Of a stretch of DNA of 64,000 nucleotides, positions 7,335 through 39,849 are shown in pieces. This DNA comes from Bacillota bacterium (GTDB lineage: Bacteria; Bacillota; Clostridia; Christensenellales; SZUA-584), in contig JAEYKW010000046.1 of NCBI GenBank assembly GCA_023408075.1, forward strand, positions 1 to 64,000. The letters are read 5' to 3'. The number at the start of each line of letters is the position of its first letter. Position 1 is the first letter of the stretch. The notes below the pieces were generated by a model. That model was not told the DNA's origin, did not search any database, and saw only the letters and a program-made list of their open reading frames with translations. The position numbers were made by a program, and so were the translations under genes.

Positions 7335-7672
7335 GTGCTTAGATTGAAAAAGCCTTCTCCTTTGAGGAGAAGGTGGTGCGCAGCACCGGATGAGGTGGCA
7401 AGCCGAAACTGTTCATACAGCCTCCTCATCAGCCGTCTGCGAGGCGCAGCGCCCAATCGACGAAAAAGCCGGCACAAATCGCTTATGTGAGAGAAAGAAA
7501 CTCTCGTGGACATATCAAATATGCGCAGTCAGCCGTATACGCGTCACAGGAATGATATCAGCATCTAGCGCAATATGTTTCGCCGGTTCTGCGCGAGCTG
7601 TTGGATCAGCAGAAAACTTATCATATCGCATCAAACTGACGGACATACTATCTTCTGAAAGGAAGGCATCAG

Positions 7673-11691: not shown

Positions 11692-13017
11692 ATGCTGAAG
11701 AAAAACGACGAAGTGGAAATCACAATAGACGATTTAACGGTGGAAGGCGCGGGCATTGGCCGGTATGAGGGGCTTGCCGTTTTTGTGGCGCACGCGCTGC
11801 CCGGGGAAAAGATAGAAACCAAAATCATCAAGCTCACTAAGAGCTATGCGGTCGGCAAGCTCATGGAAATCATAGAGCCGTCGCCGGAGCGCACAGTGCC
11901 GTTCTGCGGCGTATTTGAAGCCTGCGGCGGGTGTACGCTGCAGCATCTTCACTATGAGCAGCAGCTGGCCTTCAAAGCGCGGCATATCAAAGAATGCTTT
12001 AAACGCATCGGCGGCATTGAGATTGAGCTGCCGCACGTGGTATCGGCGGACAACATCCGCGACTACCGCAACAAGGCGTCGTTTCCCGTGGCCCCGGTGA
12101 ACGGTAGGGCGCAGGCCGGGTTTTTTGCGCCGCACAGCCACAGGCTGGTTGCGTGCGACTGCCCGATACAAAAGCAGGTGATCAACGATGTGAAAAACAG
12201 GGTTGTCGAGTGGGCCAACGGCAATAAAATTGCGCCATACGATGAGGAAGCGCATGCGGGTCTGCTGCGGCATGTCGTCGTGCGGCAATCCTCCGGCGGT
12301 GAGCTGATGGCGGGGGTGGTGCTGCGCGACTGGACGGATACCAAGACACTCGAAAGAGCGCTTGCGCCTGCGGCGCAAAGCATCGTTATCAACCGAAACG
12401 AGAAGAAACAGAACGCGATACTCGGCAGCCAAAACCGCACCGCTGCGGGTAACGACTATATCACAGAAACCTATGACGGTTTGCGGTTTCGTGCCGGGCT
12501 CACTAGCTTTTTGCAGGTGAATCACGAGCAGTCCGAAAAGCTGTACCGCATTGCGCTTGAGTACGCGCAAATCACGCGGGACGACACCGTGTTTGATTTG
12601 TTCTGCGGCATCGGGACGATCTCACTGCTGGCTGCAAGGCAGGCCAAAACGGTGCTCGGTATTGAGTACGTGCAGGAGGCTGTGAAAAACGCGGAGGAGA
12701 ACGCACAGCTCAATGACATCGGCAACGCCTGTTTCCTTGCGGGCGATGCGGGGCAGATGATTGATGAGGGGATACGACAATACGGCAGGCCGGATATTGT
12801 GATTCTCGACCCGCCGAGAAAGGGCTGCGACGCGCCGCTGATCAAAAAAATTGTGGAGGTTGCGCCCAAGCGCATTGTGTATGTCTCATGCAATCCGTCC
12901 ACGCTGGCGCGGGACGCCGCGCTGTTTGAGGGATATAGCATAGACAAAGTGGTTGGGGTAGATATGTTCCCGCATACGACGCATGTGGAGAGCGTGGTAT
13001 TGATGTCAAAGGGTTAG
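11692..13017 (+). CDS. 23S rRNA (uracil-C5)-methyltransferase, RumA/RlmD family (TRAM + Fe-S + SAM MTase)
   Basis: N-terminal TRAM domain, Cys cluster CGVFEACGGCTLQH...C and a class-I MTase motif (DLFCGIGTISL). Confidence 0.8.
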   Translation: MLKKNDEVEITIDDLTVEGAGIGRYEGLAVFVAHALPGEKIETKIIKLTKSYAVGKLMEIIEPSPERTVPFCGVFEACGGCTLQHLHYEQQLAFKARHIKECFKRIGGIEIELPHVVSADNIRDYRNKASFPVAPVNGRAQAGFFAPHSHRLVACDCPIQKQVINDVKNRVVEWANGNKIAPYDEEAHAGLLRHVVVRQSSGGELMAGVVLRDWTDTKTLERALAPAAQSIVINRNEKKQNAILGSQNRTAAGNDYITETYDGLRFRAGLTSFLQVNHEQSEKLYRIALEYAQITRDDTVFDLFCGIGTISLLAARQAKTVLGIEYVQEAVKNAEENAQLNDIGNACFLAGDAGQMIDEGIRQYGRPDIVILDPPRKGCDAPLIKKIVEVAPKRIVYVSCNPSTLARDAALFEGYSIDKVVGVDMFPHTTHVESVVLMSKG

Positions 13018-14348: not shown

Positions 14349-15338
14349 ATGAAGCGCAGATTATTAATACTCGGCATTGCCGCCATATTTATTTTGGCGC
14401 TGCTGCCAACAGCCGTACTGGCGTACGATTCCGGCGGCGAGACGTACAACGCCCACGATTACAACGCGATGGTAAACTTCTTGAACCAGCCTTCGGCAGT
14501 CAAGGGTCAGACAAACGCTCAGCGGCTTGGCTACGATATATCGCAGCCCGAAACGTGGACCGATGTTGTTTGGAGTGATGATACGGAAAAACGCCTTGTG
14601 CAAATCGGCTCGGAAAGCGGCGCGAGCGCCTGGACCAGTAAAAGACTGGCAGGCTCCATGGACCTCTCAAACTGCACCGCACTTGAAAAAATCAATTGTG
14701 ATTCAAACAGCATGACTGCGCTTGACGTAAGCGGTTGCACGGCGCTTCAAGATCTGAATTGCATGGACAATCAACTGACAGCGCTCGATATAAGCGGATG
14801 TACTGTGCTTGTCAACCTGATATGCAACTTTAACATGTTGACAACGCTCGATATTAGCGCAAATACGGCGCTTGAGGATCTGGCATGCTATGGTAATCAG
14901 CTTGCATTGCTCGATGTGAGCACAAATAAGGAACTTAAAATATTGGTATGCAGTTACAACCGACTGACAGCGCTCGATGTGAGCGCAAACACGGCGCTTC
15001 AAAATCTGTCTTGCAGCCAAAACCAGCTTGCACTGCTCGATGTGAGCACAAACACAGCACTTAAATATCTTGATTGCCGTGAAAACCAGCTGACAACACT
15101 CGATGTGAGTCAATGCACGGCGCTTATAGATATGGATTGTGGTGGAAACCAGCTCACAGCGCTCAATTTAAGCGAGTGCACGGCGCTTCAAAAGCTCAAA
15201 TGTGATGAATCAGTTGCGGTAACGGGATTTACACCGCTCTGGGTGTATTTCGAGTACGGCTTAGGGCTTCTTGTCCTTGGCGCTGTAACGGCATGGATAC
15301 TGATCCGCCGCAGGCGGAAGAAACGCGCTAATCACTAA
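14349..15338 (+). CDS. Cell-surface leucine-rich-repeat protein with signal peptide and C-terminal TM anchor
   Basis: Signal peptide, N-terminal cap domain (YNAHDYNAMVNFLNQ...), about eight 22-residue LRRs (LTALDVSxxTALQxLxCxxNQ) and a C-terminal hydrophobic helix plus RRRRKKR. Confidence 0.75.
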   Translation: MKRRLLILGIAAIFILALLPTAVLAYDSGGETYNAHDYNAMVNFLNQPSAVKGQTNAQRLGYDISQPETWTDVVWSDDTEKRLVQIGSESGASAWTSKRLAGSMDLSNCTALEKINCDSNSMTALDVSGCTALQDLNCMDNQLTALDISGCTVLVNLICNFNMLTTLDISANTALEDLACYGNQLALLDVSTNKELKILVCSYNRLTALDVSANTALQNLSCSQNQLALLDVSTNTALKYLDCRENQLTTLDVSQCTALIDMDCGGNQLTALNLSECTALQKLKCDESVAVTGFTPLWVYFEYGLGLLVLGAVTAWILIRRRRKKRANH

Positions 15339-15405: not shown

Positions 15406-16350
15406 TTACTCCTTGTATTCACTTCCGTATATGGCAGCTATATCATGTATTCGATGCTTCATTTCTGTGCGGACATGTAACGGCTCCAAACACTCGCATT
15501 TATCCCCAAAACTGAAAAGTATATTGTAGTAGTATTCGTTCTCTATGAAAGGAAAACGAACAATGTAATGCTCATCTCCGTCTGGCGAAAAGTATTCATA
15601 AGTGCAATAATCAAGAACCCTGTCCATGACAGATTTATGAATACGGATTTTGATTTTTGTTTGCATAGCTGCCAATGTATCAGCAAAATCCAACTGCGGT
15701 TTTCGATAATCTCGAGGCGTAAAAAATTCCTCTTGTATTTGCAGGTTTGATGTGCGGGACAGCCTGAATAAGCGAAAATCATTTCTTTTATGGCAATACC
15801 CTTGCCAATACCAATGACTGCTTTTCAATACAAGCTGATACGGCTCGGCTGTCCGTGCGGTTTTATTTCCGTAGCGGTCTGCATATTCAAACGAAAGCAG
15901 CCTGCTTTCCTGTAAAGCTGTCTTGATAATTTCTAAATAGGGTTGTACAGTCCTGTTGCCCATCCACGGGCATAAATCGATATATATTTGATTTGCTTTA
16001 AGTTCAATGTCTTTCGCTCTGTCGGCGGGGATAAAACTCTTCACTTTCGCAAGGGCGTTTACCAGCTCATCACCCCGTATCATGCCCGAAAGACTGGAAA
16101 GCCCCATCAAGATAGCGGAAAGGTCGGCAGTCGAAAAAACCTTTCTGTCAATCTTGTATTCCTGCATGATTTCAAAGCCGCCGCCCACGCCCGGCGCTGA
16201 GCGAACAGGAATACCCGCCATGTTGATCGCGTCTATGTCGCGGTAGATTGTGCGGGGTGAAACTTCAAACATATCCGCTAGCTCCTGGGCGCCTATACGC
16301 TTTTTATCAAGGAGTATCATAATAATGCTAACAAGCCTGTCAACTTTCAT
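15406..16350 (-). CDS. WYL-domain transcriptional regulator (HTH-WYL-WCX, YafY-like)
   Basis: HTH (AQELADMFEVSPRTIYRDIDAINMAGIPV) plus a WYL domain. Start chosen at MKVDRL downstream of a minus-strand promoter. Confidence 0.75.
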   Translation of the reverse strand: MKVDRLVSIIMILLDKKRIGAQELADMFEVSPRTIYRDIDAINMAGIPVRSAPGVGGGFEIMQEYKIDRKVFSTADLSAILMGLSSLSGMIRGDELVNALAKVKSFIPADRAKDIELKANQIYIDLCPWMGNRTVQPYLEIIKTALQESRLLSFEYADRYGNKTARTAEPYQLVLKSSHWYWQGYCHKRNDFRLFRLSRTSNLQIQEEFFTPRDYRKPQLDFADTLAAMQTKIKIRIHKSVMDRVLDYCTYEYFSPDGDEHYIVRFPFIENEYYYNILFSFGDKCECLEPLHVRTEMKHRIHDIAAIYGSEYKE

Positions 16351-16383
16351 CTGATAGCCGGCTTCCCCAATTTTTTTGTTATC

Positions 16384-16412
16384 AGTATAGATTGTGGCCA
16401 TGCTGATGTCAA
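16384..16412 (-). promoter_or_regulatory. sigma-A promoter for the WYL regulator (TTGACA-17-TATACT on the minus strand)
   Basis: The reverse complement reads TTGACAtcagcatggccacaatcTATACT. Confidence 0.4.
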
Positions 16413-16468
16413 CAATTGTGGGTATAATTAAATAGTAAGATTGGAAATGCAATAAATGGAGGTAATTT

Positions 16469-27230: not shown

Positions 27231-28145
27231 TCAAGTTCTATTTTTATATTTGTTTACCATGTCATTTAATTCGTGCCGGAGCGCGTCGCGTATTTTCTGA
27301 GGGGATAACACCTCTGCATCAGCGCCGAACGAGAGGAGATAGCGGATCAGCCATTTGCTGTCTGGCAAAGAGGCAGTGACGGTGAAAGAACCGTCCTGAT
27401 GTTTAAAAATGCTGTTTTCCTCAAATTCATCGTATACTCGGTATGCACCTTCGGCGCGAATCTTCAGGCATAAATCGACCCGGTTCTGCGTTTCTTGTGC
27501 CTGTCCGCTTCCCGGTAATTCTGACGATTCTCTTTCTGAGAAAGACTCCGATGTCATCAGGATATCCGACATTCGTATGATTTTGAAGATTCTAAATGTA
27601 TTTCTGGCCAAACAGAACGCTTTCAGGTACCAGGCGTTTACCTTGAAGACGAGCTTAACTGGTTCAACTCTCCGGATGCTTTTTTCACCGGATGAGCTAA
27701 AATAATTGAACTCAATAATCCGGCGGCTTAAAATGGCGTCTTTTAAAATGGTAAAATGGCCCATCCTGCTTTCGTCGCTGCCCCAGGGGCTGAAATCCAC
27801 CTCAAGCCAACCGGTTTTGTTTTTATTGAACAAACTGCTCAATTTGGCAAGCACTTGATCCATCTGAGGAGCTTTAGTGACCGACAGGCTTTGCAATGCG
27901 TATAGGATTTCGTTTTGTTCTCTTTCCGAAAGGATGGATTTATCAAGCACGTAATCGTCCAGCAGAGAGATGCCTCCGCCCTTACCTTGGGTTGCATAAA
28001 TCGGCACGCCTGCCGAAGACAGGGTTTCGATATCTCGATAAATGGTTCTTTCAGATACTTCAAAACGCGCTGCCAGCTCTTTGGCGGTTGTGGTTTTTTT
28101 ACGAAGCAAGATATAGATTGTTTCAAACAGCCTGTTAATTTGCAT
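27231..28145 (-). CDS. WYL-domain transcriptional regulator (HTH_11 + WYL)
   Basis: AKELAARFEVSERTIYRDIETLSSAGVPI plus a WYL domain. First gene of the minus-strand operon. Confidence 0.8.
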   Translation of the reverse strand: MQINRLFETIYILLRKKTTTAKELAARFEVSERTIYRDIETLSSAGVPIYATQGKGGGISLLDDYVLDKSILSEREQNEILYALQSLSVTKAPQMDQVLAKLSSLFNKNKTGWLEVDFSPWGSDESRMGHFTILKDAILSRRIIEFNYFSSSGEKSIRRVEPVKLVFKVNAWYLKAFCLARNTFRIFKIIRMSDILMTSESFSERESSELPGSGQAQETQNRVDLCLKIRAEGAYRVYDEFEENSIFKHQDGSFTVTASLPDSKWLIRYLLSFGADAEVLSPQKIRDALRHELNDMVNKYKNRT

Positions 28146-28567
28146 ATCATCACCCCAAATTCATTATAAAGCAAATAACCTGATACTAATATGTCAAGTT
28201 ATGCGTCAATGAACCAAATGTGTTATGCCATTTTATGGGTAAATATTTGACGGTGGAGAATGATTGAATTGCCTTGTTGATTTTTGATTTATTCATCAAC
28301 ATCCACCGTCACGCCGGACTTGAACTCCACGGTGAATTTGTCCTCGTATACGGTGACTTTTTCAATTTACCGCAGACAAGCGGCTCGTGTATTCGACCTA
28401 GGCGGTGGGGGACTCACAGTTATATGATCGTAATGGGTCTCTTTTTGGACATTATAATAAACATGACAGTATGCCGTCATATTAGAAATGTTATTATAGA
28501 TTGTCGGAATCAAAAGGTGCGGAGAAAGTCCACCGAGCACTAAAAAGTAACTGGGAGATGAAGTCAT

Positions 28568-28894
28568 TTGAAAGACATGAATTTTAGCAAGATTATTGAA
28601 CGTTCCCTTGCCATAAGAGAAAGTTATCGTAAATTGGAAGAGCAGTATCACGGTGAAAAGTGGTCGGTCGGAGAAGATGCCCTTGCCTTTCTAACAGATG
28701 CCGGTCTGGTTGGCCGTTTAACAATGTCCCAACAAGGGCGTTGGCCCAAAGGAAACGGTACAGAAGCTGAATTGAAGCATAAGCTTAGCGAATGTATTTG
28801 GTGGCTGATTGTTTTGGCCGAGCGTATGGAGATCAATATTGAAGAGGCAGTGGAGGTTTTTTTGTCTAAGCTCGAAAAACAGATGCAAGGCTGA
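28568..28894 (+). CDS. MazG-like nucleotide pyrophosphohydrolase (YpjD-like small form)
   Basis: 108 aa with the EExGExxWxLxxLAxxxxIxxEEA pattern. Confidence 0.55.
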   Translation: MKDMNFSKIIERSLAIRESYRKLEEQYHGEKWSVGEDALAFLTDAGLVGRLTMSQQGRWPKGNGTEAELKHKLSECIWWLIVLAERMEINIEEAVEVFLSKLEKQMQG

Positions 28895-29017
28895 ATCGTT
28901 AGAGATACGAATATTTATAGCTGAATAACAAAATTATGCATTCTGCAATCATAATCCTGTAGAGTGGCTTTTTTTTATTATTCATCCACCGGCAAAAAAT
29001 GATATATTATTATTCTC

Positions 29018-29046
29018 TTGACAAATTCGTACTACGTATGTAGTAT
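29018..29046 (+). promoter_or_regulatory. blaI promoter (TTGACA-17-TAGTAT) overlapped by a BlaI/CopY-type operator palindrome
   Basis: TACTACgtatGTAGTA (29030-29045) lies between and over the -35/-10 elements; it is related to TACAnnTGTA cop/bla boxes. Confidence 0.45.
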
Positions 29047-29081
29047 TCAAATTACAGAGGTAAACAAAGGAGATATTAGCT

Positions 29082-29456
29082 ATGATACCCAAAATTTCCG
29101 ACTCTGAGCTGGAAGTCATGCGGTTGCTTTGGCGCGAAGAGCGCCCCTTGTCGTTTGCCGAGATACGCACGGAGCTTGAAAGCAAAACCAAATGGACTAA
29201 ATCCACGATTCAAACACTTGTGGTTCGCTTGCGCGACAAGGGCGCTGTCAGCACACAAACCAACTATGTAACTTTGTACAGTCCCGCCGTCACCGAGCAG
29301 GAATATGTATTGGCAGAGGGTCAATTGTTTCTGGATAAGCTGTTTAAAGGGAACGCGAAAAAGCTTGTCGCGTCATTGTGTGAAAACGGACAGTTAAACG
29401 AAAGCGACATCGACGAATTAAAGCAGTTTTTCAAAATGGAGGACTGTCAAAAATGA
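29082..29456 (+). CDS. blaI: BlaI/MecI/CopY-family transcriptional repressor
   Basis: Winged helix SDSELEVMRLLW...SFAEI...TKSTIQTLVVRLRDKG and a C-terminal dimerisation helix. Confidence 0.85.
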   Translation: MIPKISDSELEVMRLLWREERPLSFAEIRTELESKTKWTKSTIQTLVVRLRDKGAVSTQTNYVTLYSPAVTEQEYVLAEGQLFLDKLFKGNAKKLVASLCENGQLNESDIDELKQFFKMEDCQK

Positions 29457-31333
29457 TCATATCACAATTGAGCGACATTGTTTGCACGATTATGATTATG
29501 TCACTCTCCGGCAGCGCTCTCATACTGCTGTTGTTTGCATTAAAACCGCTCATACGTCATCAATTGCCCAAGTCGGTGCAATATGTCTTGTGGCTCGTTA
29601 CGCTCGCGGCACTGCTCGTTCCGGTATCAAAGCTGATTGCCATACCCGATGCGCCGTCACATATCATAGTTGCACCGATCCAAAACGCCGTAGAACAAAA
29701 CAATATCGCAGGTAAAGAAGCAGCGGATACACTTTCTCAGACGAATACAGTTTCGCAGACAGATAGAACGACAACGAAAAATCCGGGTGTTAAGCCAGCG
29801 ATGCACCCTGTATTCACAGCGGCAACTGTATTGATGATAATCTACATGTTAATCGTATTGGTCGTGCTGTCTTATTACATCGTCAGCTACGTTCGGTTCA
29901 CAAGAAGAGTGCGCCGCCATCGCACCCGGGCGCGCATGGAAGAGCTTTATGAGCATGTCGGGTTATGCGGCGATACGATTGCGCCCCGTCTTTACCGCAG
30001 CGCGCTGACCACAACGCCGATGCTGATCGGGATATTTAAACCCGAGATCATATTGCCCGACCGTGAATATACGGGCGCACAATTTCAGAGTGTATTAAAG
30101 CATGAGCTAACTCATTTGCGCAGACGGGACATCATAGTCAAGTGGCTGTCCGTGTTGGCCCGAGCTGTGCACTGGTTCAATCCGCTCGTATGGCTTGCGT
30201 TGCGCGAAATCGACCGTATCTGTGAATTGTCCTGTGACGAGGCCGTGATACGAACAATGGATCACGCAGGAAAACGGAGTTATGGGGAAACATTGATTTC
30301 CATCGCAGCTGATAACAATGCATCGCGGGCCGTGCTTTCCACAACGATGTGTGAGGAAAAAGAGGTATTGAAAGAGCGGCTGAACCTCATTATGAAATAC
30401 CAAAAGCGGACATGGGTCACGCTCGTTATCTCGACGATTATTATATTCGCAGCTGTTTTCACAGCCTTTGTTATGGGCGCACGGGCGGCTTCTGCTCCTG
30501 GAGATAATATGGCTGGCGCAGTGGCTCCGGCATCCGTGCAGAGTGCTCTTCCATCGGATTCTGCGGCAGCCCAGCCGCATTCTCCCTCTGAAAAAGTTAT
30601 AGAGTTCAAGGATCCGATTGTGGAGAAGGTCATCAGCGCCAAATTGAAAAAGCCAGAAGGCGCGATCACCGAGCAGGACATGCTGAAGATTGAGGATTTT
30701 GAATTCAATGATGTAAGAATGAATATATACAGCGGGAAAATTAAAACGATAGAGGACCTGCGCTGGTGTGTGAATCTTAAGAGTATATTCTTAGCCAGTA
30801 CGGACATAACAGATATTTCCGCGCTATCCGGCATGCGGAATCTCGAATCCGTCTGTATCATGGAAAAGCTTGACGACTTCACTCCGCTGCTTGGCAACAA
30901 GAACCTTACCGAAATCCAACTCACAGGCGCTGCCGACAACTTTTTCAGGGATCTGATGAAAAATTGCAGAATGCTTTCCTCCGTGGGCCTGACTAAGTCA
31001 GACGTCAGCCCTGAAAGCATCCGAATGTTGGCAATGAACTTTAAGTTAACAACTCTTGTTATGAATTTCTGCTATATAAAGGACGTCACTCCTTTCATCG
31101 ACTTCACGGGGCTGGAATACTTGTCGCTTGAAAACAACTATATAAAAGATATCTCGGTGTTTGCGGCGAACCCGGAATTGAGCAAAGCCATCGATCTGAG
31201 CGGCAACCAAATCACCGACTGGAGCCCGCTGGAAGATATGACGTTGCTTAGCCTCAACGTATATGATAATCCGGTAACGAAAAGTCCAGCACTGGATAAA
31301 CTCGAAAAAAAAGGCTGTGAAATTTATAGGTAA
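29453..31333 (+). CDS. BlaR1/MecR1-family M56 metalloprotease signal transducer with C-terminal leucine-rich-repeat sensor domain
   Basis: 4 TM helices, HELTHLRRRD (HExxH) and the M56 core. After a further TM helix there is an internalin-like LRR domain (...LSLENNYIKDISVFAANPELSKAIDLSGNQITDWSPL) instead of a penicillin-binding domain. Overlaps blaI by 4 nt. Confidence 0.8.
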   Translation: MIISQLSDIVCTIMIMSLSGSALILLLFALKPLIRHQLPKSVQYVLWLVTLAALLVPVSKLIAIPDAPSHIIVAPIQNAVEQNNIAGKEAADTLSQTNTVSQTDRTTTKNPGVKPAMHPVFTAATVLMIIYMLIVLVVLSYYIVSYVRFTRRVRRHRTRARMEELYEHVGLCGDTIAPRLYRSALTTTPMLIGIFKPEIILPDREYTGAQFQSVLKHELTHLRRRDIIVKWLSVLARAVHWFNPLVWLALREIDRICELSCDEAVIRTMDHAGKRSYGETLISIAADNNASRAVLSTTMCEEKEVLKERLNLIMKYQKRTWVTLVISTIIIFAAVFTAFVMGARAASAPGDNMAGAVAPASVQSALPSDSAAAQPHSPSEKVIEFKDPIVEKVISAKLKKPEGAITEQDMLKIEDFEFNDVRMNIYSGKIKTIEDLRWCVNLKSIFLASTDITDISALSGMRNLESVCIMEKLDDFTPLLGNKNLTEIQLTGAADNFFRDLMKNCRMLSSVGLTKSDVSPESIRMLAMNFKLTTLVMNFCYIKDVTPFIDFTGLEYLSLENNYIKDISVFAANPELSKAIDLSGNQITDWSPLEDMTLLSLNVYDNPVTKSPALDKLEKKGCEIYR

Positions 31334-31520
31334 GGAACTTTATAGCCCCGCCGTCACCGAGCAGGAATATGTATTGACCGAGGGTCAATTGTTTCTTGAT
31401 AAACTGTTTAAAGGGAACGCGAAAAAGCTTGTCGCGTCGTTGTGCGAAAACGGACAATTAAGCGAAAGTGACATCGACGAATTAAAACAATTTTTCAAAA
31501 TGGAGGACTGTCAAAAATGA
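31317..31520 (+). pseudogene. Truncated blaI copy (C-terminal dimerisation half only) created by tandem duplication
   Basis: The 67-aa ORF is about 90% identical to residues 66-124 of the full BlaI and lacks the DNA-binding domain. Confidence 0.5.
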
Positions 31521-33421
31521 TCATTTCACAATTAAGCGATATCATTTGCACGATTCTCATTATGTCTCTCTCCGGCAGCGCTCTCATACTGTTATTGTTT
31601 GCATTGAAACCGCTCATACGCCATCGTTTGCCCAAATCGGTGCAATATGTCTTGTGGCTTGTCACGCTTGCGGCACTGCTCGTTCCCGTATCAAAGCTGA
31701 TTACCATACCCCAAGCGCCGTCAGATATCATAGTTGCACCGATTCAAAATGCCGTGGAACAAAATAATGTTCTGGTTCAGGAAGAAACAAATATGGTGCC
31801 GCAGACGGACACAAATACAGTGCCGCAGACGGACACAACGACAGCAAAAAGTCCGGCTGTGAAACCGGCGATGAACCCTGTCATAACAGCCACAACCGTA
31901 CTGATGTTGGTCTATATATTAATTGTATTGGTCGTGCTGGCTTATTACATAGCCACCTACGTTCGTTTCACAAGAAGAGTGCGCCGGCACCGCACCCGGG
32001 CGCGTATGGAAGAGCTTTATGAGCATGTCGGGTTATGCGGCGATACGATTGCGCCTCGCCTTTACCGCAGCGCGCTGGCCACAACGCCGATGCTGATTGG
32101 AATTCTTAAACCTGAGATCATATTGCCTGACCGTGAATATACCGACACACAGATGCAGAGTGTATTGAAACATGAGTTAACTCATTTGCGCAGACGGGAC
32201 ATTATTTTTAAATGGCTGTCTATATTCGCCCGCGCTTTGCATTGGTTCAATCCGCTCGTATGGCTTGCGCTGCGCGAAATCGACCGTATCTGTGAATTGT
32301 CCTGTGACGAGGCTGTGATACGGACTCTCGATCAAACGGGAAAACGGATTTACGGGGAAACGTTGATTTCCATCGCATCGGATACGAATGCATCGCGGGC
32401 CGTGCTTTCCACAACGATGTGTGAAGAAAAAGAGGTGTTGAAAGAGCGGCTGAACGTTATTATGAGATACCAAAAGCGCACATGGATCACTCTCGTTGTT
32501 TCGACGGTCATCGTGGTTGCGGCGGTTTGCGCCGTCTGTGTGTTCGGTGCGGGAGCGGCTCCGTCGGCGGCTCCGGGCAATAATAAGGTGGATGCATTAG
32601 CAGCAGTCGCCATACAGAGCCCGTCAGCAACGCCCGTGGCAACGCCGGAATCAGCCTCCTTGCAGAGCGTTTTGCCGTCGGCGGCGCCTGAAGAAGAGGC
32701 GCAGCCAGTATCTTTAGAGAGCCCATCGACGGCACCTGAGGCAGCAATGCAACCGGCACCCGTTCAAAGCTTTTTCGCATCACCTGCGCAAACACCGGAC
32801 CCGGATTATATAAATGAGCTGCGCAAAGATGCCATAGAAGTAAGCACAGAAGAAGAATTTGCTGATGCGCTGAATACTGCCGACGTCGTTGTATTGAAAA
32901 AAGATTTAACGCTAGATGATGAATTTGTGACATTAGAAGATTTAGAAGCGCTGGTTATTGATGAAGGCGTTACACTGACTGTCACGTGTTTGAATCTTCA
33001 TGCGACCTGTGAAATCGTCAACCTTGGAGAAATCATAGTGGCCGATTCCGGTCGATTGATGTTTTTCAGTGAACCGGATTATTCTACGATCGGTAAAATC
33101 AGTGTTATAGGGAAAGACGCCAAAATCTTATACGGTGCAGGCAAAGTCGGTGCTGAAGCAATTGCTTATTATCTGAGCGATGATTCGCTCTTTAATGAGC
33201 TTAGTTTAACCCCGCCTTACAGGGATGGCGAAATTGTTGAGATACTCGTTGACCAAGACATTGAGATAGCCGCCGGTAAAACTCTTTGGATGAATGCTCA
33301 TAGCGTACTGCATGTGGCAGAGGGAGTGACCCTTACCAATAACGGGGCCATACGCTATTATGTCGAACCCATCATCGACGGGAAAATCGATGGAATAGGA
33401 AAAGTCGTCTATGATGATTAA
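31517..33421 (+). CDS. BlaR1-family M56 signal transducer paralog with novel C-terminal extracellular domain ('domain X')
   Basis: The N-terminal 340 aa are about 90% identical to the first BlaR1. After a Pro/Ala/Ser-rich linker there is a 210-aa domain shared with the LysM protein at 33501 (…VIDEGVTLTVT..NLHATCEIVNLGEIIV.DSGR…). Confidence 0.8.
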   Translation: MIISQLSDIICTILIMSLSGSALILLLFALKPLIRHRLPKSVQYVLWLVTLAALLVPVSKLITIPQAPSDIIVAPIQNAVEQNNVLVQEETNMVPQTDTNTVPQTDTTTAKSPAVKPAMNPVITATTVLMLVYILIVLVVLAYYIATYVRFTRRVRRHRTRARMEELYEHVGLCGDTIAPRLYRSALATTPMLIGILKPEIILPDREYTDTQMQSVLKHELTHLRRRDIIFKWLSIFARALHWFNPLVWLALREIDRICELSCDEAVIRTLDQTGKRIYGETLISIASDTNASRAVLSTTMCEEKEVLKERLNVIMRYQKRTWITLVVSTVIVVAAVCAVCVFGAGAAPSAAPGNNKVDALAAVAIQSPSATPVATPESASLQSVLPSAAPEEEAQPVSLESPSTAPEAAMQPAPVQSFFASPAQTPDPDYINELRKDAIEVSTEEEFADALNTADVVVLKKDLTLDDEFVTLEDLEALVIDEGVTLTVTCLNLHATCEIVNLGEIIVADSGRLMFFSEPDYSTIGKISVIGKDAKILYGAGKVGAEAIAYYLSDDSLFNELSLTPPYRDGEIVEILVDQDIEIAAGKTLWMNAHSVLHVAEGVTLTNNGAIRYYVEPIIDGKIDGIGKVVYDD

Positions 33422-33500
33422 GAACCAAAATTAAGATTTATAGCGGATATATAGTAAAACGAATTGTTTAATAACTTAATGCCGATAATAGGAGGATGCC

Positions 33501-34427
33501 ATGAAAAGATATTTCGCTATCACAATTGTCATTATCTTCATCCTGTCCTTGCTGCCGGGTTATGCCAGCGCTGGCACTGCTGAGCCTTCTATAATAACAG
33601 CCCGTGCGACTGCGCCAGATCTTAAACCCGGCCAGATTTCTCAGATGTATGAGGAGTATACCGTCAAGCGCGGAGACAGCCTTTCTTCGATTGGCAGACA
33701 ATTTGGCGTATCATGGCGGGACATCGCGAAACTGAACGATATACATGGCCCGAAGTATACAATTCGACCCGGTCAAATATTAAAAATCCCACAGTCACTA
33801 ACATCATCCCCGTCTTATGTAAAACAGCTGCGCAAAAATGCAGTAAAAGTGAACACAGAAAAAGAATTTGCTAATGCGCTGAAAACAGCCTATGTCATTG
33901 AACTGAAAAAAGATATAACTTTAAGTGAAAATCTTGTTACATTAGACGATATCAATGCGCTGGTTATTGATGAAGGCGTTACGTTGACTGTCACATCTAT
34001 GAATTTTCATGCTACATGTGCAATCGTTAACCTTGGAGAAATCATAGTGAAGGACTCCGGCCGGATGATTTTTCACAGTGAACCGGATTACTCCTGTATC
34101 GGTAAAATCAGTACCAGAGGGAGATTCGCTCAAATTGCCTTCAATTCGGGAAAAATCGGTGCTGATGAAATGACTTATTTCCTGAGCGAAGATTCGCTGT
34201 ACGATTCGCTCAATATTGTCGCAAGTTCCTCCGATGGAAAACCTGTCGAGATATTGGTTGACCATGACATTGTCATCCCTGCCAGTAAAACCCTTTGGAT
34301 AAATTCTGGAAGCGTTTTGCATGTGTCAAAGGGAGTGAAGCTAACCAATAACGGTACCATAAGCTATTTTAACGAACCTATCATTGACGGGAAAATCGTT
34401 GGAATAGGAGAAGTCATTGATAACTAG
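33501..34427 (+). CDS. Secreted LysM-domain protein carrying 'domain X' (shared with BlaR1 paralog 2)
   Basis: Signal peptide and LysM (YTVKRGDSLSSIGRQFGVSWRDIAKLN...ILKIP). The C-terminal 210 aa are about 55-60% identical to the BlaR1b sensor domain. Confidence 0.7.
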   Translation: MKRYFAITIVIIFILSLLPGYASAGTAEPSIITARATAPDLKPGQISQMYEEYTVKRGDSLSSIGRQFGVSWRDIAKLNDIHGPKYTIRPGQILKIPQSLTSSPSYVKQLRKNAVKVNTEKEFANALKTAYVIELKKDITLSENLVTLDDINALVIDEGVTLTVTSMNFHATCAIVNLGEIIVKDSGRMIFHSEPDYSCIGKISTRGRFAQIAFNSGKIGADEMTYFLSEDSLYDSLNIVASSSDGKPVEILVDHDIVIPASKTLWINSGSVLHVSKGVKLTNNGTISYFNEPIIDGKIVGIGEVIDN

Positions 34428-34791
34428 AAACCGTATTTAAGCTTAAGGCTCATCAACTGAATTCAATTATTAACGGATATGCTAAATTTAAAACAGCGGA
34501 ACGCTTCACTTTAGCGGTTATATTTCTGCTCAAGGTTCCCATACTAGTGCTCACATTTATTAACATTGGATGGGATCTTTTACGGTAGCAATTGGGTGTG
34601 GAACGACGTCGTAAAAAACGTCGTTCCGAGCGGGTTCGGTCGGTTTATGCTTTTCAGTTTATATTGACTCCTATCTCAGTGACCCGTCGATTGCGTTGAA
34701 ACCTTAAAGCACGAAGATAATTACGATAGCAATCGTTTAGCAGCTAATGAAACAATTTTTGAAATTCTGAAAAAAACAGCAGGAGGACGCC

Positions 34792-36246
34792 ATGAAAAGA
34801 TTATACACCTTAACAATCGTCATTCTCCTCATACTGACCCTGCTGCCGGGCTATGCCAACGCGGGTGCAGCCGCATTTCCCGAAGCATCCGCGCAAGCGG
34901 CTGCCTTAACACCTCCGGTGCCGATACTGTCACTCGCGCTCGACCAATACTCTGAGCTTTACCGGGAGTACACGGTTAAGCGCGGTGACAGTCTTATCTC
35001 GATAGGCAGACAGTTCAAGGTGCCGTGGAGAGATCTTGCAATACTGAACGGTATAGGGGGACCAAAGTACACGGTTACCAACGGACAAACCCTCAAAATC
35101 CCGCTGCTGCCGAAGCTGCCGGGGACAACCGGCAATTATCTTATTCTTTGCGAAAACGAAGCGCAAAAGCAATGCCTGGCCGAATTCGCAGCATACAAAA
35201 TATTAAACGGATATTCGGTGACGATAAAAAGCGTGGAAGCGGATGTCAAATTGAAAGCCGATGCCGACACCAGCGAAGAGATACGGCAATATCTTAAGAA
35301 GATGGACAAGGTGTTATCGCTGGAATTCGTGTTACTTGTCGGGAGCGCTTACGATGAAGAATCGGCTTGTATTCAGCACACCGGCGGAGCTATTCCGCTG
35401 AGATATATGTACGACAATCCGGCCAATCGTGACTACAGTTGGTACGATGGCAAGAACCATAAAGTATTCAAAACGCCGACAGATATCTATTATGCGTTGG
35501 ATCTAAACTGGGATTTTGACGAGGATGGTTTCGCAGGCGAAAGGAATGAGATGGCCGAAAGCGTTAAGCAAGCAGAGCCCAAGTTGTTGTTCCGGCTTGG
35601 CAGAATCCCATTTTCGGATAGCAAAGATATCAAGAAGGTACTGGATTCAACGATGCAATATGAAATCAGCCAAAAAGCACATTCTGATGCTCTGATCGGC
35701 AGCTATGGGATATGGGCTTACTATAGCGATGCGCTTGCGAATAATTTCTCCAATATGAAGATTAAGGCTGTCTCGCTTTACGGAAATGACGAAAATGGGC
35801 CGTGTCAGTACAAAAGCACCTACCCGTTAAGTATCGATAATTTCTTTAGTGAAATCAATAAGAAGTATGACTTTGTTTATATAATGGGCGATATAAAAAA
35901 ATATTGCGGCAACACGCCTTTAGGGAAACGCGTGCAGGCCGGAATTTACTTCCTCGACGGTACGGCGACAATGCAAGCGGAGCCCGAACCGAAATATTCT
36001 CGATTTAATGCACAGGATTTCCTTGCCGAAGGGTCGGCCTGTACCGTGATTGCCACCACCGAAGAAGTCGGTTTTAACCCGAAAAATCCGGTCCCGCGCA
36101 TAACCAGCAGGTTATTCTCCAATAAAATGCTCAGCATCTCAGGTGAATTCTATGCCGCGGTACTGTCGTCGATCATGGAGGACGATGTGAGGGAAGCCTA
36201 TGTTTACTGCTATCTCGGTGACCCGTCTATCGCCTTAAAACAATAA
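34792..36246 (+). CDS. Secreted LysM-domain protein with C-terminal peptidase-C25 (gingipain)-like domain
   Basis: Signal peptide and LysM paralogous to the 33501 gene. C-terminal region has the C25-type pattern YALDLNWDFDEDGFAGE...PKLLFRLGRIPFS. The catalytic His/Cys are not clearly identifiable. Confidence 0.55.
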   Translation: MKRLYTLTIVILLILTLLPGYANAGAAAFPEASAQAAALTPPVPILSLALDQYSELYREYTVKRGDSLISIGRQFKVPWRDLAILNGIGGPKYTVTNGQTLKIPLLPKLPGTTGNYLILCENEAQKQCLAEFAAYKILNGYSVTIKSVEADVKLKADADTSEEIRQYLKKMDKVLSLEFVLLVGSAYDEESACIQHTGGAIPLRYMYDNPANRDYSWYDGKNHKVFKTPTDIYYALDLNWDFDEDGFAGERNEMAESVKQAEPKLLFRLGRIPFSDSKDIKKVLDSTMQYEISQKAHSDALIGSYGIWAYYSDALANNFSNMKIKAVSLYGNDENGPCQYKSTYPLSIDNFFSEINKKYDFVYIMGDIKKYCGNTPLGKRVQAGIYFLDGTATMQAEPEPKYSRFNAQDFLAEGSACTVIATTEEVGFNPKNPVPRITSRLFSNKMLSISGEFYAAVLSSIMEDDVREAYVYCYLGDPSIALKQ

Positions 36247-36478
36247 TGGGGGTGCTGGGGCTCATTGAATGAGCCAGGAAAGGGGACATGGGAATAAAGG
36301 CCTTCTATAGCAGGATTAACGCCATATGAGGCCTTAATTCCATAAAAAGCGAAGAGAGAAAGTCAGCCGCAGAGCCAGTATTAGCGGAAAAGAGCTGCCT
36401 TCACCAAGCCGGATAGTCGGAGGGATTTGAGCCACAGCTGTTTTTGTGATATATTCGGTATAAAATTTTTATTAAGAT

Positions 36479-37000
36479 TTGGAGTCAAAAATGGATAAGG
36501 CTAAACGAAACAACACGATAACTTTTTCATTATTCATCATTTATATATTGGTATTGATATGGATAGTCCTTTTTAAACTGCACTTTTCTTTTGCAGAAAT
36601 GGACAGGATAAGAACTATCAATCCGATTCCATTTCAGGGCTCCGGCATTGGTGCTAATGAAGTTTATAACATACTTTTTTTCATTCCTTATGGTATTTAT
36701 ATATGTATGTTAAAACGCCAATGGTCTTTTATAAAAAAGGTTATTATCATTCTATGTTTCAGTTTGTCTTTTGAAATCCTTCAATATATTTTTGCAGTCG
36801 GAAGAACGGACATAACGGACTTGCTATGCAATATGCTGGGCGGAATCATTGGTGTTGGTATTTACGGATTGTTATTCAGAATAATAAAATATAAAACCAA
36901 TAACGTCTTGAATATTGTACTTTTGTTATTAACAGTATGTATATTATTGTTTTTCGCTTTGTTAGTTACACACTCGCTGCCGTTTGTTTTTAATCTATAA
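36479..37000 (+). CDS. VanZ-like family membrane protein
   Basis: 4 TM helices. LSFEILQYIFAVGRTDITDLLCNMLGGIIG matches the VanZ pattern. Confidence 0.6.
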   Translation: MESKMDKAKRNNTITFSLFIIYILVLIWIVLFKLHFSFAEMDRIRTINPIPFQGSGIGANEVYNILFFIPYGIYICMLKRQWSFIKKVIIILCFSLSFEILQYIFAVGRTDITDLLCNMLGGIIGVGIYGLLFRIIKYKTNNVLNIVLLLLTVCILLFFALLVTHSLPFVFNL

Positions 37001-37173
37001 ATCTATAGATTGATAACTGTGCTGTTTGGTCGCTCGGTTTGCGAGTTTTAACATTTGCAAAAAGGTATATTATACGACATTTTCCATGGAATTAACTTGT
37101 ACTAACATAACGAATAAACTATAATATCCATATATAACTAAGATAAAAATAGAAAAAAAGGAGTATTGGACCA

Positions 37174-39849
37174 ATGAAAAAGCTTAGTCTCTTTCTCGTG
37201 TTGTTGTTACTCATTTCTATGTTCCCATTACAGGCATTGGCTGCCGATGAAAACAACGACAGCTATAACGATCACGATGTGGCGCAGATAAGCGCATTTT
37301 TGAATCAAACGTCTTCCGGCTTAACCAACGCGGAAATACTCGGTTATGCCGACCCAAATGATCCGGCGATATGGAGCGATGTCTCTTGGGTTTCAGTGGA
37401 TGGTGAACAACGCGTTCAGAGCATCAACTGGGGCTTTAAGGATACCGCAGGAGTGCTGGACCTTTCGGGATGCACGGCCTTGACCGAACTGTATTGTCTC
37501 TCGATCGGGCTGACCTCTCTGGATGTGAGTGGATGCACCGCTTTAAGCACGCTATCATGCGAATTTAATTCGCTGACCAGCCTCGATGTCAGCACCTGCA
37601 GCTCGCTCAGTCAGCTTTCTTGTTATGTTAATGCTATTGAAACATTAAATGTGAGTGGCTGCAGCAATTTGACATGGCTGAATTGTTCTGAAAATAAACT
37701 CACACAGCTCGATGTGAACAGCTGTGCCAATCTTGGCGATCTTGATTGCAGTCATAACAATTTGTCGTCGTTGGATGTGAGCGGCTGCCCTCTGGGATAC
37801 TTATCATGTACTGAAAACCCGCTGAAACAGATTCACGCTGTTATAGAGGGAGAGGATGTCAAACTGAACGCATCAGCAGGATATCTTAAGTTATCTTATT
37901 TGGCTTACGACATCGAAGGTGAGATGTACGTCGATAGATATTCCGCGTCGGCTGTCCCTGACAGCATGCCGTGCTCCGGGTGGACGGGAATGCAGGACGG
38001 GGTGTTATTCTCGTCAGACGATTCCAATATCGATCTTGAAATCGGCTGTTCATACGACATTACCGCGAATTTTGCGAGCGGAACCGTATACAACGACCAT
38101 GACGTCACAAAGATGCAGGTATTCCTCAATAAAGAGCCTTTAGAGGGACCAAATTACATGCAGCTGGGTTATGACGTTGACGACCCGTCCACCTGGAACG
38201 ATGTGACTTGGGTGGCTTCGCCCGAAGGCCTGCGCATATCGGCGGTTGAATGGAACGAAAGACAAGCCGTCGGCGGTACGCTCGATCTTTCCGGCTGCGC
38301 CTATCTTGAGTCTGTCGATTTTTACGGTAACGAGCTTCATGGGCTTAATTTGAACGGCTGTGCCGCGCTTAAGAATGTTTCCTGCAACGATAATTATCTT
38401 GATACGCTGAGTCTAAGCGGATGCGACGAGTTAACAAGCTTAAAGCTCAACAACAACAACGGGCTTCTCATTGCGCTTGAGCTGCAGGGGTATACAAAGC
38501 TTGAGCACCTTGAGTGCGTACAAAGTCTTCTCGATACACTTGATGTTGGCGGCTGCACGGCACTCACATATCTTGATTGCAGCAACACTTATGAGTACAA
38601 TCGCAATTTTATCAACACTCTTGACCTGAGCGACAGCACGGGGCTGACAACGCTGAAATGTGCAGGCAATCCTCTGGCTCGTATAAGCGCGATTATGAAC
38701 GATACTGTGATAGATCTTACCGCCGGAGGGTGGGGATATGTCGCATTATCTGAGGGCGGAGAGACAGCTTATACGGTGCAAGTGCCCGATACTCAACCGT
38801 TTTCAAGCTGGATAGGCACACAGGACGGCTCCCCGTTCTTTTCAGCCGAATCGACAATAAATTTAACGCCCGGCTCCGAATATGTCCTGATGGCGAATTT
38901 CGGTTACGGCGTTTTTTACGACGGCAACGGAGCGACGGGCGGCACAGTACCCGATGGCGGCAGACACAACGCGGGGGATTCCATTGGGGTGCGCAGCAAC
39001 TCGGGCAGCCTTGAGCGAGCGGGTTTTGAATTTGCAGGCTGGAACACGGCGGCTGACGGCAGCGGCACATCATACAGCGAGGACTCATCGATGATGATGC
39101 CCGCAGAGAACATCACGCTGTACGCGGTTTGGGAGCCCATCGCCTATACCATCACCTATGACCTCGACGGAGGTGAGGCACAGAATCCCGCGACTTACAA
39201 TGCTCTGACCCCGGCATTCACGCTGAATAATCCTACGAAACTGGGATATGTGTTTGCGGGCTGGACGGGAACGGACCTTGCGAATGCGGCGATGAGCGTC
39301 AGCTTCCCGGCGGGGTCCATAGGCGACAGGGCTTACACAGCAAACTGGGCGCAGAACACAGTATACACCGTCACATTCGATGCGAAGAACGGGAGCGCGG
39401 TGGACAGCATTGAGGTGAATGCGGGAGGGACAATTGAAACCGCCCCTGTCACGAGCCGGTTCGGTTATAACTTTACCGGCTGGTATACGAAGAAGGGAGT
39501 GCTCATAACGTTCCCATATCATGTAACGGGCAGCGTGACGCTTTATGCGGGGTGGGAGAAGCAGCCAAAGACAGCATACCTTTCGGATGTTGAACTCTCG
39601 TCTGGCACTCTCGATTCAAACTTTTCGAATTCGAAATACCTCTATTTAATAAGGCTGCCCGAGAGTGAGACGAGCTTTACGCTGACCCCGGTTAAAGAGT
39701 ATGATGGCGCTTCGATGTCGATAAACGGGGAATCCACATCGAGTTACACGGTTAACCTTGAAAACCATAGGAATGCGCTGATATGCGTGATCGTGCAAAA
39801 CGGCAAAAGCATAAGGCTGTATACTTTCATCGTGCACAGAGGAAGATGA
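37174..39849 (+). CDS. Large secreted LRR protein with Listeria-Bacteroides repeats and C-terminal cadherin-like beta-sandwich domain
   Basis: Signal peptide and two copies of the cap+LRR module seen in the 14349 gene. Also 3-4 Listeria-Bacteroides (Flg_new) repeats (GY.FAGW..). C-terminal LS.GTLDSNFSNSKYLY...FTLTPV is cadherin-like. Confidence 0.75.
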   Translation: MKKLSLFLVLLLLISMFPLQALAADENNDSYNDHDVAQISAFLNQTSSGLTNAEILGYADPNDPAIWSDVSWVSVDGEQRVQSINWGFKDTAGVLDLSGCTALTELYCLSIGLTSLDVSGCTALSTLSCEFNSLTSLDVSTCSSLSQLSCYVNAIETLNVSGCSNLTWLNCSENKLTQLDVNSCANLGDLDCSHNNLSSLDVSGCPLGYLSCTENPLKQIHAVIEGEDVKLNASAGYLKLSYLAYDIEGEMYVDRYSASAVPDSMPCSGWTGMQDGVLFSSDDSNIDLEIGCSYDITANFASGTVYNDHDVTKMQVFLNKEPLEGPNYMQLGYDVDDPSTWNDVTWVASPEGLRISAVEWNERQAVGGTLDLSGCAYLESVDFYGNELHGLNLNGCAALKNVSCNDNYLDTLSLSGCDELTSLKLNNNNGLLIALELQGYTKLEHLECVQSLLDTLDVGGCTALTYLDCSNTYEYNRNFINTLDLSDSTGLTTLKCAGNPLARISAIMNDTVIDLTAGGWGYVALSEGGETAYTVQVPDTQPFSSWIGTQDGSPFFSAESTINLTPGSEYVLMANFGYGVFYDGNGATGGTVPDGGRHNAGDSIGVRSNSGSLERAGFEFAGWNTAADGSGTSYSEDSSMMMPAENITLYAVWEPIAYTITYDLDGGEAQNPATYNALTPAFTLNNPTKLGYVFAGWTGTDLANAAMSVSFPAGSIGDRAYTANWAQNTVYTVTFDAKNGSAVDSIEVNAGGTIETAPVTSRFGYNFTGWYTKKGVLITFPYHVTGSVTLYAGWEKQPKTAYLSDVELSSGTLDSNFSNSKYLYLIRLPESETSFTLTPVKEYDGASMSINGESTSSYTVNLENHRNALICVIVQNGKSIRLYTFIVHRGR

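Follow-up and report, generated by a model that had tools for sequence, protein, structure and literature searches.

BlaIR systems are textbook switches of β-lactam resistance. In BlaR1-BlaI and MecR1-MecI of Staphylococcus aureus and Bacillus licheniformis (PDB 8exp-8ext), a membrane sensor combines an M56 gluzincin protease domain bearing HEXXH, EXXXD and Asp/Tyr motifs with four transmembrane (TM) helices in an Nout-Cout arrangement and an extracellular penicillin-binding domain, and is encoded next to an overlapping gene for a winged-helix repressor of the BlaI family, with a palindromic operator over the promoter. A survey of approximately 15,000 M56 proteins distinguished 254 domain architectures and found that only about 6% of the proteins carry a transpeptidase domain, while 96% are encoded within 5 genes of a BlaI; the Clostridioides difficile pair CenIR is a non-canonical example whose regulon is small and concerns the cell envelope (Kurtz et al., J Bacteriol 2026, PMC13492132). 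According to this recent work, most members of the family sense something other than β-lactams, and almost none has a known signal. Here we describe a locus of this kind in a 64,000-nucleotide (nt) stretch of a Bacillota bacterium genome (GCA_023408075.1, contig JAEYKW010000046.1, positions 1 to 64,000; hereafter the window). The evidence supports the assignment of the open reading frame (ORF) at 29453..31333 (+ strand, 626 amino acids (aa)) as an M56/BlaR1-family sensor-protease with a leucine-rich repeat (LRR) domain in place of the β-lactam-binding ectodomain. We put at roughly three in four the probability that this protein is a non-canonical BlaR1/MecR1-family membrane sensor-protease which, together with an overlapping blaI gene, forms an autoregulated proteolytic signalling module.

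Analysis of the 29453..31333 product with Pfam revealed a match to Peptidase_M56 (PF05569) over aa 13-313 (E 7.4e-56; 189.9 bits against a cutoff of 31) that spans profile positions 3-296 of 296, followed in the C-terminal third by LRR_4 (E 6.3e-17; 61.7 bits against a cutoff of 27) and LRR_8 (30.3 bits against a cutoff of 27). The same analysis found no transpeptidase or penicillin-binding protein (PBP) domain (PF00905, the SxxK sensor) in the protein. When PDB sequences were searched, aa 13-342 aligned to S. aureus BlaR1 (8exp, E 6e-5), and the segment aa 385-617 matched internalins A, B, F and C2 as well as a Roco LRR (E 4e-21 to 1e-8). An AlphaFold2 (AF2) model built on 42 homologs reached a mean predicted local distance difference test score (pLDDT) of 83.5, exceeding 90 in the M56 core and 95 over aa 380-626, with segments of low confidence at 70-110, 291-302 and 348-376. 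In Foldseek comparisons of this model, the C-terminal part resembled InlB, InlA, InlF and InlC2, and the N-terminal part resembled BlaR1 (8exs). These observations bear out the original prediction, made from the letters of the DNA, of an M56 protease core with an HExxH motif followed by an LRR domain that replaces the β-lactam sensor; the domain measures about 245 aa, close to the approximately 230 aa first estimated.

In its domain content, catalytic motifs, predicted topology, partner repressor and operator, the protein is a member of the M56/BlaIR family in the broad sense. Judged by its sequence, it is not a canonical BlaR1 or MecR1, as it is without the transpeptidase sensor and scores far below the corresponding NCBIfam cutoffs (138 bits against 400 for blaR1_generic, with only model positions 8-323 of 585 matched; 46 for sensor_MecR1 and 36 for sensor_BlaR1, each against 1200). 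A protein identical to it (cluster P0001) is already present in NCBI and ENA, and orthologs of the same architecture occur in several independent assemblies. The gene is therefore not an assembly chimera, and with its catalytic residues intact it is not a pseudogene.

Hydropathy and the AF2 model place TM1 (aa 9-30), TM2 (43-64), the extracellular loop EL1 (65-119) and TM3 (120-146) within 29477..29890, with hydropathy peaks of 2.2-2.8. The gluzincin protease domain, delimited by motifs and alignment (aa 147-320; 29891..30412), is predicted to face the cytoplasm, and is followed by TM4 (aa 321-343; 30413..30481; hydropathy 2.61), the last element shared with the tandem paralog described below. 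Beyond TM4 lies an Ala/Pro/Ser-rich disordered linker of about 35 aa that is predicted to be extracellular (aa 344-380; 30482..30592; pLDDT <50 for aa 348-376). The AF2 helices coincide with the four hydropathy segments. Basic residues are concentrated in loop 31-42 and right behind TM3 (RFTRRVRRHRTRAR), and application of the positive-inside rule therefore puts the N-terminus outside, the protease inside and the C-terminus outside. Four TM helices with both termini outside is the topology of BlaR1 in its cryo-EM structure (PMC9834060). The LRR domain of the window protein is thus predicted to be extracytoplasmic, as had been proposed for it at the outset, and its closest LRR relatives, which are free proteins with a signal peptide and a lipobox-like Cys, provide independent support for this placement. 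EL1 itself is Thr/Gln-rich and partly disordered.

The protease site is read directly from the sequence as H217ELTH221 (30101-30115) and E258LSCD262 (30224-30238). In a 42-sequence alignment, H217, E218, H221, D226, E258, D262 and Y277 are invariant; the BlaR1 counterparts of these motifs are H201EXXH, D210, E242XXXD and Y261 (PMC9834060). A further loop, aa 291-302, is disordered in the AF2 model, yet conserved in sequence, and we consider LSTTMCEEK (aa 295-303) a candidate autocleavage loop.

The LRR ectodomain (aa 381-626; 30593..31330), identified concordantly by Pfam, PDB, Foldseek and AF2, opens with a helical cap (388-398, 407-411), continues through about nine irregular repeats of 20-29 aa and stops at the protein C-terminus (aa 626), right behind the last repeat. 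Its fold resembles that of internalins, but the domain does not belong to that family. The Listeria internalins InlA, InlB, InlC2 and InlF give the best sequence and fold matches to aa 385-617, and share with it the helical cap, the parallel β-strand repeats and the flavour of the 'LxxLxLxxNxIxDIxPL' consensus. However, the identity amounts to only 16-26%, the repeats are irregular rather than of the regular 22-residue kind, and the domain has no Ig-like inter-repeat domain, LPXTG/GW anchor or signal peptide, being tethered instead to an M56 protease. Internalin-type NCBIfam models match aa 423-602, with internalin_A reaching 47 bits against a cutoff of 1600.

The nearest relatives of the LRR domain are free proteins, about 290-330 aa long and exported (P0128-P0134), which are 52-61% identical to it over 99% of the domain. 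In these proteins, homology to the sensor begins exactly behind a Pro/Thr/Ser linker that follows the signal peptide and is analogous to the Ala/Pro/Ser linker of the sensor. A query of the representative library with the LRR domain yielded 17,929 matches at E ≤0.001, mostly giant generic LRR proteins, and was of no use for counting fused versus free copies; among the matches listed, the only ones above 50% identity besides the sensor's own cluster were P0128, P0131, P0157 and a partial P0135. Within the 64-kb window, no free paralog of the sensor's LRR domain was found.

Immediately upstream of the sensor gene, 29082..29456 (+) encodes a 124-aa winged-helix repressor of the Penicillinase_R family (PF03965, E 5.5e-27) that can be aligned over its full length to the structures of S. 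aureus BlaI and MecI (E ~2e-12). Compared with blaI in the related loci, it shows 77-89% identity. The ATG of the sensor gene shares the tetranucleotide ATGA with the stop codon of this blaI-like ORF. Assignment of the repressor to the CopY/TcrY copper family was ruled out (78 bits against a TIGR02698 cutoff of 121.95); its C-terminus, ...KQFFKMEDCQK, has a single Cys and no CxCx4CxC motif. The same gene order was observed in relatives (the loci L001 to L010), where a BlaI directly precedes the sensor in every intact locus examined, including the LRR-bearing sensors of L001, L006/7, L008, L009 and L010.

A predicted sigma-70-type promoter for the blaI/M56 operon, TTGACA-17 nt-TAGTAT (29018..29046, +), agrees with the consensus at 10/12 positions, a score that is joint-top within 28000-37500, with three other sites equalling it. 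TTGACA is also present upstream of blaI in L001, L002, L003/L005, L006/7 and L008. Between the -35 and -10 elements, and overlapping the latter, lies a palindrome, TACTAC-GTAT-GTAGTA (TACTACGTATGTAGTA; 29030..29045), that represents a putative BlaI-type operator. It occurs as a single copy in the window, where 0.1 copies would be expected by chance at ≤3 mismatches, and TACNAC-N4-GTNGTA recurs upstream of blaI at the same offset from TTGACA in L001, L002, L004, L006/7 and L008, the site being half-degenerate in L003/L005; in all, seven related loci have retained the operator in this position. A possible second, weaker dyad, TTAC-AGAG-GTAA (TTACAGAGGTAA; 29052..29063), can be read directly 20 bp downstream of the first and is conserved in part (TTACAGAGGTAG in L006, TTACTTAAGTAG in L008); it may serve as a second operator site. 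Clostridial BlaI regulators have been found to govern small autoregulated regulons through paired dyads (PMC8457756).

Three bases past the stop codon of the M56-LRR gene begins a truncated copy of blaI comprising its last 60 codons in frame (31338..31520, +; Penicillinase_R positions 60-113, E 3.6e-9). This remnant is 96.7% identical in aa sequence to residues 65-124 of the resident BlaI, from which it differs by 11 synonymous and 2 nonsynonymous codons, and it retains a GGAGGA ribosome-binding site and an ATGA overlap for a second M56 gene. We found no promoter or operator belonging to the remnant, and its listed GTG start is without a convincing ribosome-binding site, so that its interpretation as a functional mini-gene was not upheld. 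The 11:2 bias toward synonymous changes is suggestive of function and is explained equally well by the recent juxtaposition of two operons that were each once functional. In L001, the equivalent spacer (12197-12398) has decayed and contains stops. The remnant reads as the trace of a recent fusion of two operons.

The second gene (31517..33421, +) encodes a 634-aa M56 sensor-protease paralog (Pfam M56, E 1.1e-55) with a different ectodomain, here called X (aa ~426-634). The two tandem sensors are 77% identical over aa 1-380 and unrelated beyond, the protein identity fading near aa 345-380. At the DNA level, the duplicated unit pairs 29272-30440 with 31336-32510 at 83-97% identity, which collapses at about 30440, in TM4 or the linker. 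The most diverged stretch of the duplicated chassis is EL1, at 58-78% nt identity (29690-29840 versus 31760-31910). In S. aureus BlaR1, this loop touches the sensor domain. The divergence of EL1 could represent co-adaptation to different ectodomains, or simply a low-complexity Thr/Gln-rich region.

The X domain (about 206 aa; 32792-33418 and 33801-34418) has no Pfam match. AF2 models it as an all-β solenoid with a pLDDT of 90.6, for which Foldseek returns only weak matches (E ≥0.1) among β-helix adhesins, pectate lyases and tapirins. Its second copy forms the C-terminal 206 aa of an exported 308-aa LysM protein encoded directly downstream (33501..34427, +; LysM E 4e-16), and the C-termini of this LysM-X protein and of the M56-X sensor share 58-62% identity (58% over 226 aa). 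The order M56-X then LysM-X recurs in L001, and M56-X sensors (P0006-P0012, P0017) are as frequent in the clade as M56-LRR sensors. This genetic context, from the overlapping blaI and its operator to the truncated blaI copy and the tandem second sensor, had been passed over in the original prediction.

From the gene order and the conserved operator, and by homology with BlaR1-BlaI, we propose the following mechanism. Dimers of BlaI would occupy TACTAC-N4-GTAGTA over the -10 element and hold the operon off. The LRR ectodomain, held outside the cell by the flexible linker after TM4, would bind a ligand other than a β-lactam, most likely a protein or a cell-surface polymer. Ligand binding would then turn on the M56 protease by way of TM4 and EL1, and the protease would cut BlaI, leading to derepression of an operon that would extend over blaI, M56-LRR, M56-X and probably LysM-X. 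Since a second M56 sensor with an X ectodomain lies in the same operon, two ectodomains probably feed one repressor, in the manner of an OR gate. Among the products of the derepressed operon there is probably a surface protein made with the very domain that one of the sensors carries. The analysis itself establishes the domains and motifs, the order of the genes, the operator together with its conservation, and the repeated occurrence of the architecture, whereas topology, activation by a ligand, BlaI cleavage, co-transcription and the kind of ligand are inferred from homology or prediction.

Several observations weigh against this interpretation. The LRR repeats are irregular, at 20-29 aa. 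The scissile bond of S. aureus BlaI, N101|F102, aligns to S98|L99 of the resident BlaI; the cleavage site is thus unconserved at the residue level and cannot be deduced by identity. No further operator was found in the 64-kb window by searches with the palindrome at ≤3 mismatches, the core CTAC-N4-GTAG or a degenerate consensus at ≤1 mismatch, and no extra operators were found upstream of the cargo genes in related loci. A weak hairpin followed by a T-run lies inside the blaI remnant (31373-31389), although the same feature is present inside the intact blaI coding sequence. Finally, the predicted co-transcription of the second sensor and LysM-X draws only on short intergenic gaps and on the lack of an intervening promoter or operator.

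The search for further proteins combining M56 and LRR domains, suggested together with the first description of the gene, showed that the architecture is recurrent: PF05569 occurs with LRR Pfam families in 21 of the best 120 homolog clusters, from uncultured Bacillota. NCBI names two of these clusters 'leucine-rich repeat domain-containing protein' (from Oscillospiraceae and Defluviitaleaceae metagenome-assembled genomes). A close clade (P0001-P0005) carries irregular LRRs like that of the window, and a distant one (P0019, P0022, P0038 and others) carries long, regular arrays of the internalin type. Because these two kinds occupy separate branches of the M56-domain phylogeny, LRRs have been joined to M56 at least twice. 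Other M56 homologs bear DUF4825, DUF4362, Flg_new, RCC1-like or no recognisable ectodomains.

In several of the related loci, free LRR proteins are encoded close behind the sensor. In L004, three are found in tandem just downstream of the M56 sensor, separated by gaps of 16-19 nt; in L003/L005 a single one follows an M56-X sensor, in L008 a single long-type copy lies behind an IS110 element, and L010 has one downstream of its sensor. The tree built from LRR domains does not separate sensors from free proteins. Their copies interleave, P0005 clustering with the three proteins next to it (73%), P0003 with the free protein P0128 (76%) and P0004 with the long-type free protein of L008 (67%). In the tree of the M56 chassis, the two sensors of one genome cluster together rather than by ectodomain type. 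Taken together, these two patterns indicate that ectodomains were exchanged repeatedly, or underwent gene conversion, the breakpoint lying in the linker.

These relationships raise the possibility of homotypic sensing, in which the LRR ectodomain, instead of reading a ligand from the environment, would report on the state of exported LRR paralogs, and the X ectodomain on that of LysM-X, whether through direct contact between domains or because both compete for one ligand on the wall or surface, such that the module could act as a feedback controller of its own surface cargo. The existence of free LRR proteins 52-61% identical to the ectodomain, the location of their genes directly downstream of sensors in L004, L003/L005, L008 and L010, the succession of M56-X and LysM-X in the window and in L001, and the interleaving of sensor-borne and free copies are all consistent with this model. 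However, the M56-X sensor of L003/L005 has a free LRR neighbour and no X protein, the M56-LRR sensors of L006/7 and L009 have no LRR neighbour, the window itself contains no free paralog of this LRR, and for the DUF4362 and DUF4825 sensors no neighbour with a matching domain was found. A strict rule by which the ectodomain equals the downstream cargo domain was accordingly not upheld, and the interleaving in the tree could reflect merely frequent recombination within the loci. We thus regard homotypic sensing as a tentative proposal that is rather unlikely to hold.

A broader generalization can be drawn with similarly limited expectation. In this clade of uncultured Bacillota, BlaI-M56 modules may be cassette-type controllers of surface proteins, whose ectodomains would be captured time and again from, or exchanged with, exported proteins of the adjoining downstream genes (free LRR lipoproteins, LysM-X) through recombination in low-complexity linkers. 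An ectodomain would then be shared with the cargo, and two sensors can be wired to one repressor; we consider this doubtful. Under such an arrangement, sensor and cargo share a binding domain and would therefore share a ligand or a homotypic partner. To our knowledge, this sensor-mirrors-cargo logic has not been described for the BlaIR family. It has a counterpart in RsgI/SigI of Clostridium thermocellum, membrane signal transducers of Clostridia in which variable extracellular C-terminal modules resemble modules of the secreted proteins under control and signalling proceeds through regulated proteolysis. The resemblance is one of logic without homology: RsgI is an anti-sigma factor cut by site-1 and site-2 proteases, whereas here the M56 protease would cut a repressor, and the matching of sensor and cargo domains in blaI-M56 loci is only partial. 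If true, the cassette arrangement would be the proteolytic-repressor counterpart of the RsgI/SigI system, and would suggest a general rule by which the signals of orphan BlaR-like sensors could be guessed from neighbouring genes; if it fails, the sensor is one more uncharacterised architecture among the 254 catalogued.

Alternatively, the M56 part might serve above all to anchor an LRR adhesin in the membrane and display it on the cell surface, with the fusion representing a by-product of domain shuffling in a surface-protein locus prone to recombination and BlaI turnover being constitutive or outside the control of the LRR. The same LRR and X domains do occur as free surface proteins of lipoprotein-like, TM-anchored or LysM-anchored types, and ectodomains have been swapped on a near-identical chassis with a breakpoint in TM4 or the linker. 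Rearrangement of the loci is likewise evident in the IS110 element of L008, the broken blaI and N-terminally truncated sensor of L004 and the blaI remnant of the window. Nevertheless, sensors with LRR, X and other ectodomains show no variation in the catalytic residues or in the candidate autocleavage loop, which indicates selection on the protease function. The adjacency of blaI and the operator are conserved as well, the presence of LRR-M56 fusions in at least two separate M56 clades suggests that the combination was selected, and a protease of 340 aa would be superfluous for a simple anchor. Display alone therefore seems to us an improbable role for the protein.

The genes flanking the operon bear on another alternative. 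Upstream of the blaI operon are adh_short and ERG4_ERG24 genes, which are found likewise in L004 and L006, and the blaI-M56 locus is thus an orthologous site on the chromosome whose content varies. No gene for a β-lactamase or a low-affinity PBP was found among the ORFs that were examined on the two flanks of the operon; in this respect the locus differs from those of BlaR1 and MecR1, which lie near a β-lactamase or PBP2a-type target gene. Downstream of the operon are a LysM protein with a partial Peptidase_C25-like domain (34792-36246), behind a 365-nt gap, and a VanZ-like membrane protein (36479-37000), behind a gap of 230 nt, neither gene being preceded by an operator. In the related loci L005 and L006, too, VanZ and Arr-ms genes are found close to blaI-M56.

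By analogy with the canonical BlaIR systems, the sensor might still detect β-lactams or cell-wall damage, responding indirectly to β-lactams or peptidoglycan fragments. The LRR domain would then bind muropeptides or a PBP, and the module would control resistance or wall repair. This model has the precedent of the family, including the control of cell-envelope genes by the non-canonical CenIR system, and is compatible with the presence of a peptidoglycan-binding LysM protein in the operon cargo and of the LysM-C25-like and VanZ-like proteins further downstream. On the other hand, the sensor has neither a transpeptidase/PBP domain nor an SxxK motif and falls well short of the blaR1_generic cutoff, the surveyed surroundings of the operon hold no β-lactamase or PBP gene, and the LysM-C25 and VanZ genes are set apart by their long gaps and the lack of an operator. 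We judge a role in the sensing of β-lactams or wall damage to be quite unlikely.

Sensing of a signal other than a β-lactam through the LRR domain, the reading we prefer, aligns the window sensor with the non-canonical BlaIR systems of C. difficile (CenIR) and mycobacteria, which likewise combine an M56 protein devoid of a transpeptidase domain and a BlaI-like repressor, encoded together in a small operon subject to autoregulation, and presumably respond to a non-β-lactam signal. Whereas the CenR ectodomain is short and mostly disordered, that of the window sensor is a large, confidently folded LRR solenoid. As LRRs are classical protein-binding domains, this sensor is among the more tractable cases in which a non-antibiotic ligand might be found. 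The locus also represents a natural experiment in modular sensor evolution, in which one protease chassis (77-85% identical) bears two unrelated ectodomains side by side, the point of the swap has been mapped to TM4 or the linker, and relatives encode free copies of these domains in adjacent genes.

With respect to novelty, LRRs are not among the nine M56 architectures with ≥100 entries listed by the survey, and neither tandem sensors behind one repressor nor ectodomains shared with exported neighbours are described in that paper (PMC13492132). Full-text literature searches combining BlaR1 or M56 with LRR or internalin returned nothing relevant, and the statement that LRR-sensing BlaR1 proteins have received no functional characterisation holds for the searchable literature. 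The novelty is nonetheless smaller than had been implied: M56+LRR proteins are already present, unrecognised by name, in public databases where the architecture recurs, and the finding that ectodomains other than penicillin-binding ones are carried by most 'BlaR' proteins was published in 2026 (PMC13492132). What is new is the anatomy of the operon, with its repressor, conserved operator, blaI remnant and tandem sensors with swapped ectodomains. New as well is the finding that the proteins closest to this LRR domain are free and exported, and that relatives encode them right behind such sensors, which suggests a logic of sensors mirroring cargo.

Two other LRR proteins of the window (14349..15338 and 37174..39849) had been taken as signs of an expanded LRR repertoire. 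Both are real, with LRR Pfam matches and signal peptides, but the proposed connection is weak. As paralogs of the sensor's LRR domain they were ruled out, the similarity being generic (E 0.01 and 0.07) and their repeats of another subtype. The two proteins are related to one another and not specifically to the sensor: they have in common an N-terminal module ('YN.HD...FLNQ.S...LGY') followed by repeats of the 'LTxLDVSxCTAL' type, after which one ends in a TM anchor with a basic tail and the other runs into Flg_new (Listeria-Bacteroides repeat) and cadherin-like domains.

The window additionally encodes two paralogous regulators of the HTH_11-WYL-WCX (PafC-like) type, at 15406-16452 and 27231-28145, both on the - strand. 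The latter gene adjoins, on the upstream side and in divergent orientation, the stretch that leads up to the blaI operon, and a similar WYL regulator gene is found upstream in L004.

In L004, the blaI region is rearranged. Positions 7444-8040 contain the 3′ half of blaI in + orientation followed by an inverted 5′ half with inverted promoter and operator, and the M56-LRR gene has lost its first ~30 codons, a full-length 678-aa member of the same cluster (P0127) existing elsewhere. We considered an invertible-promoter switch at this position and found no flanking inverted repeats; the locus looks rearranged or degenerate, or is possibly mis-assembled.

Several related loci encode a further family, here designated Y, of polytopic membrane proteins of about 400 aa that have no Pfam match and carry a conserved C-terminal region ('MYPHNFPEDEARAFL...EVYFFGIDI.TY.DGEIVLK'). 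Right behind the genes for sensor and cargo, up to six copies of the Y gene follow one another in tandem (L001 15402-17795, L004 12906-20750, L006 10061-11350), and the family is absent from the 64-kb window. In L005 (9953-12447, equivalent to L003 11880-14370), a free LRR lipoprotein is adjacent to an RCC1/WD40_RLD-like lipoprotein with a near-identical signal peptide and N-terminal region, the pair sharing 57-64% identity over the first ~40-57 aa. This similarity suggests that export signals and linkers, too, may be shuffled as modules in these loci.

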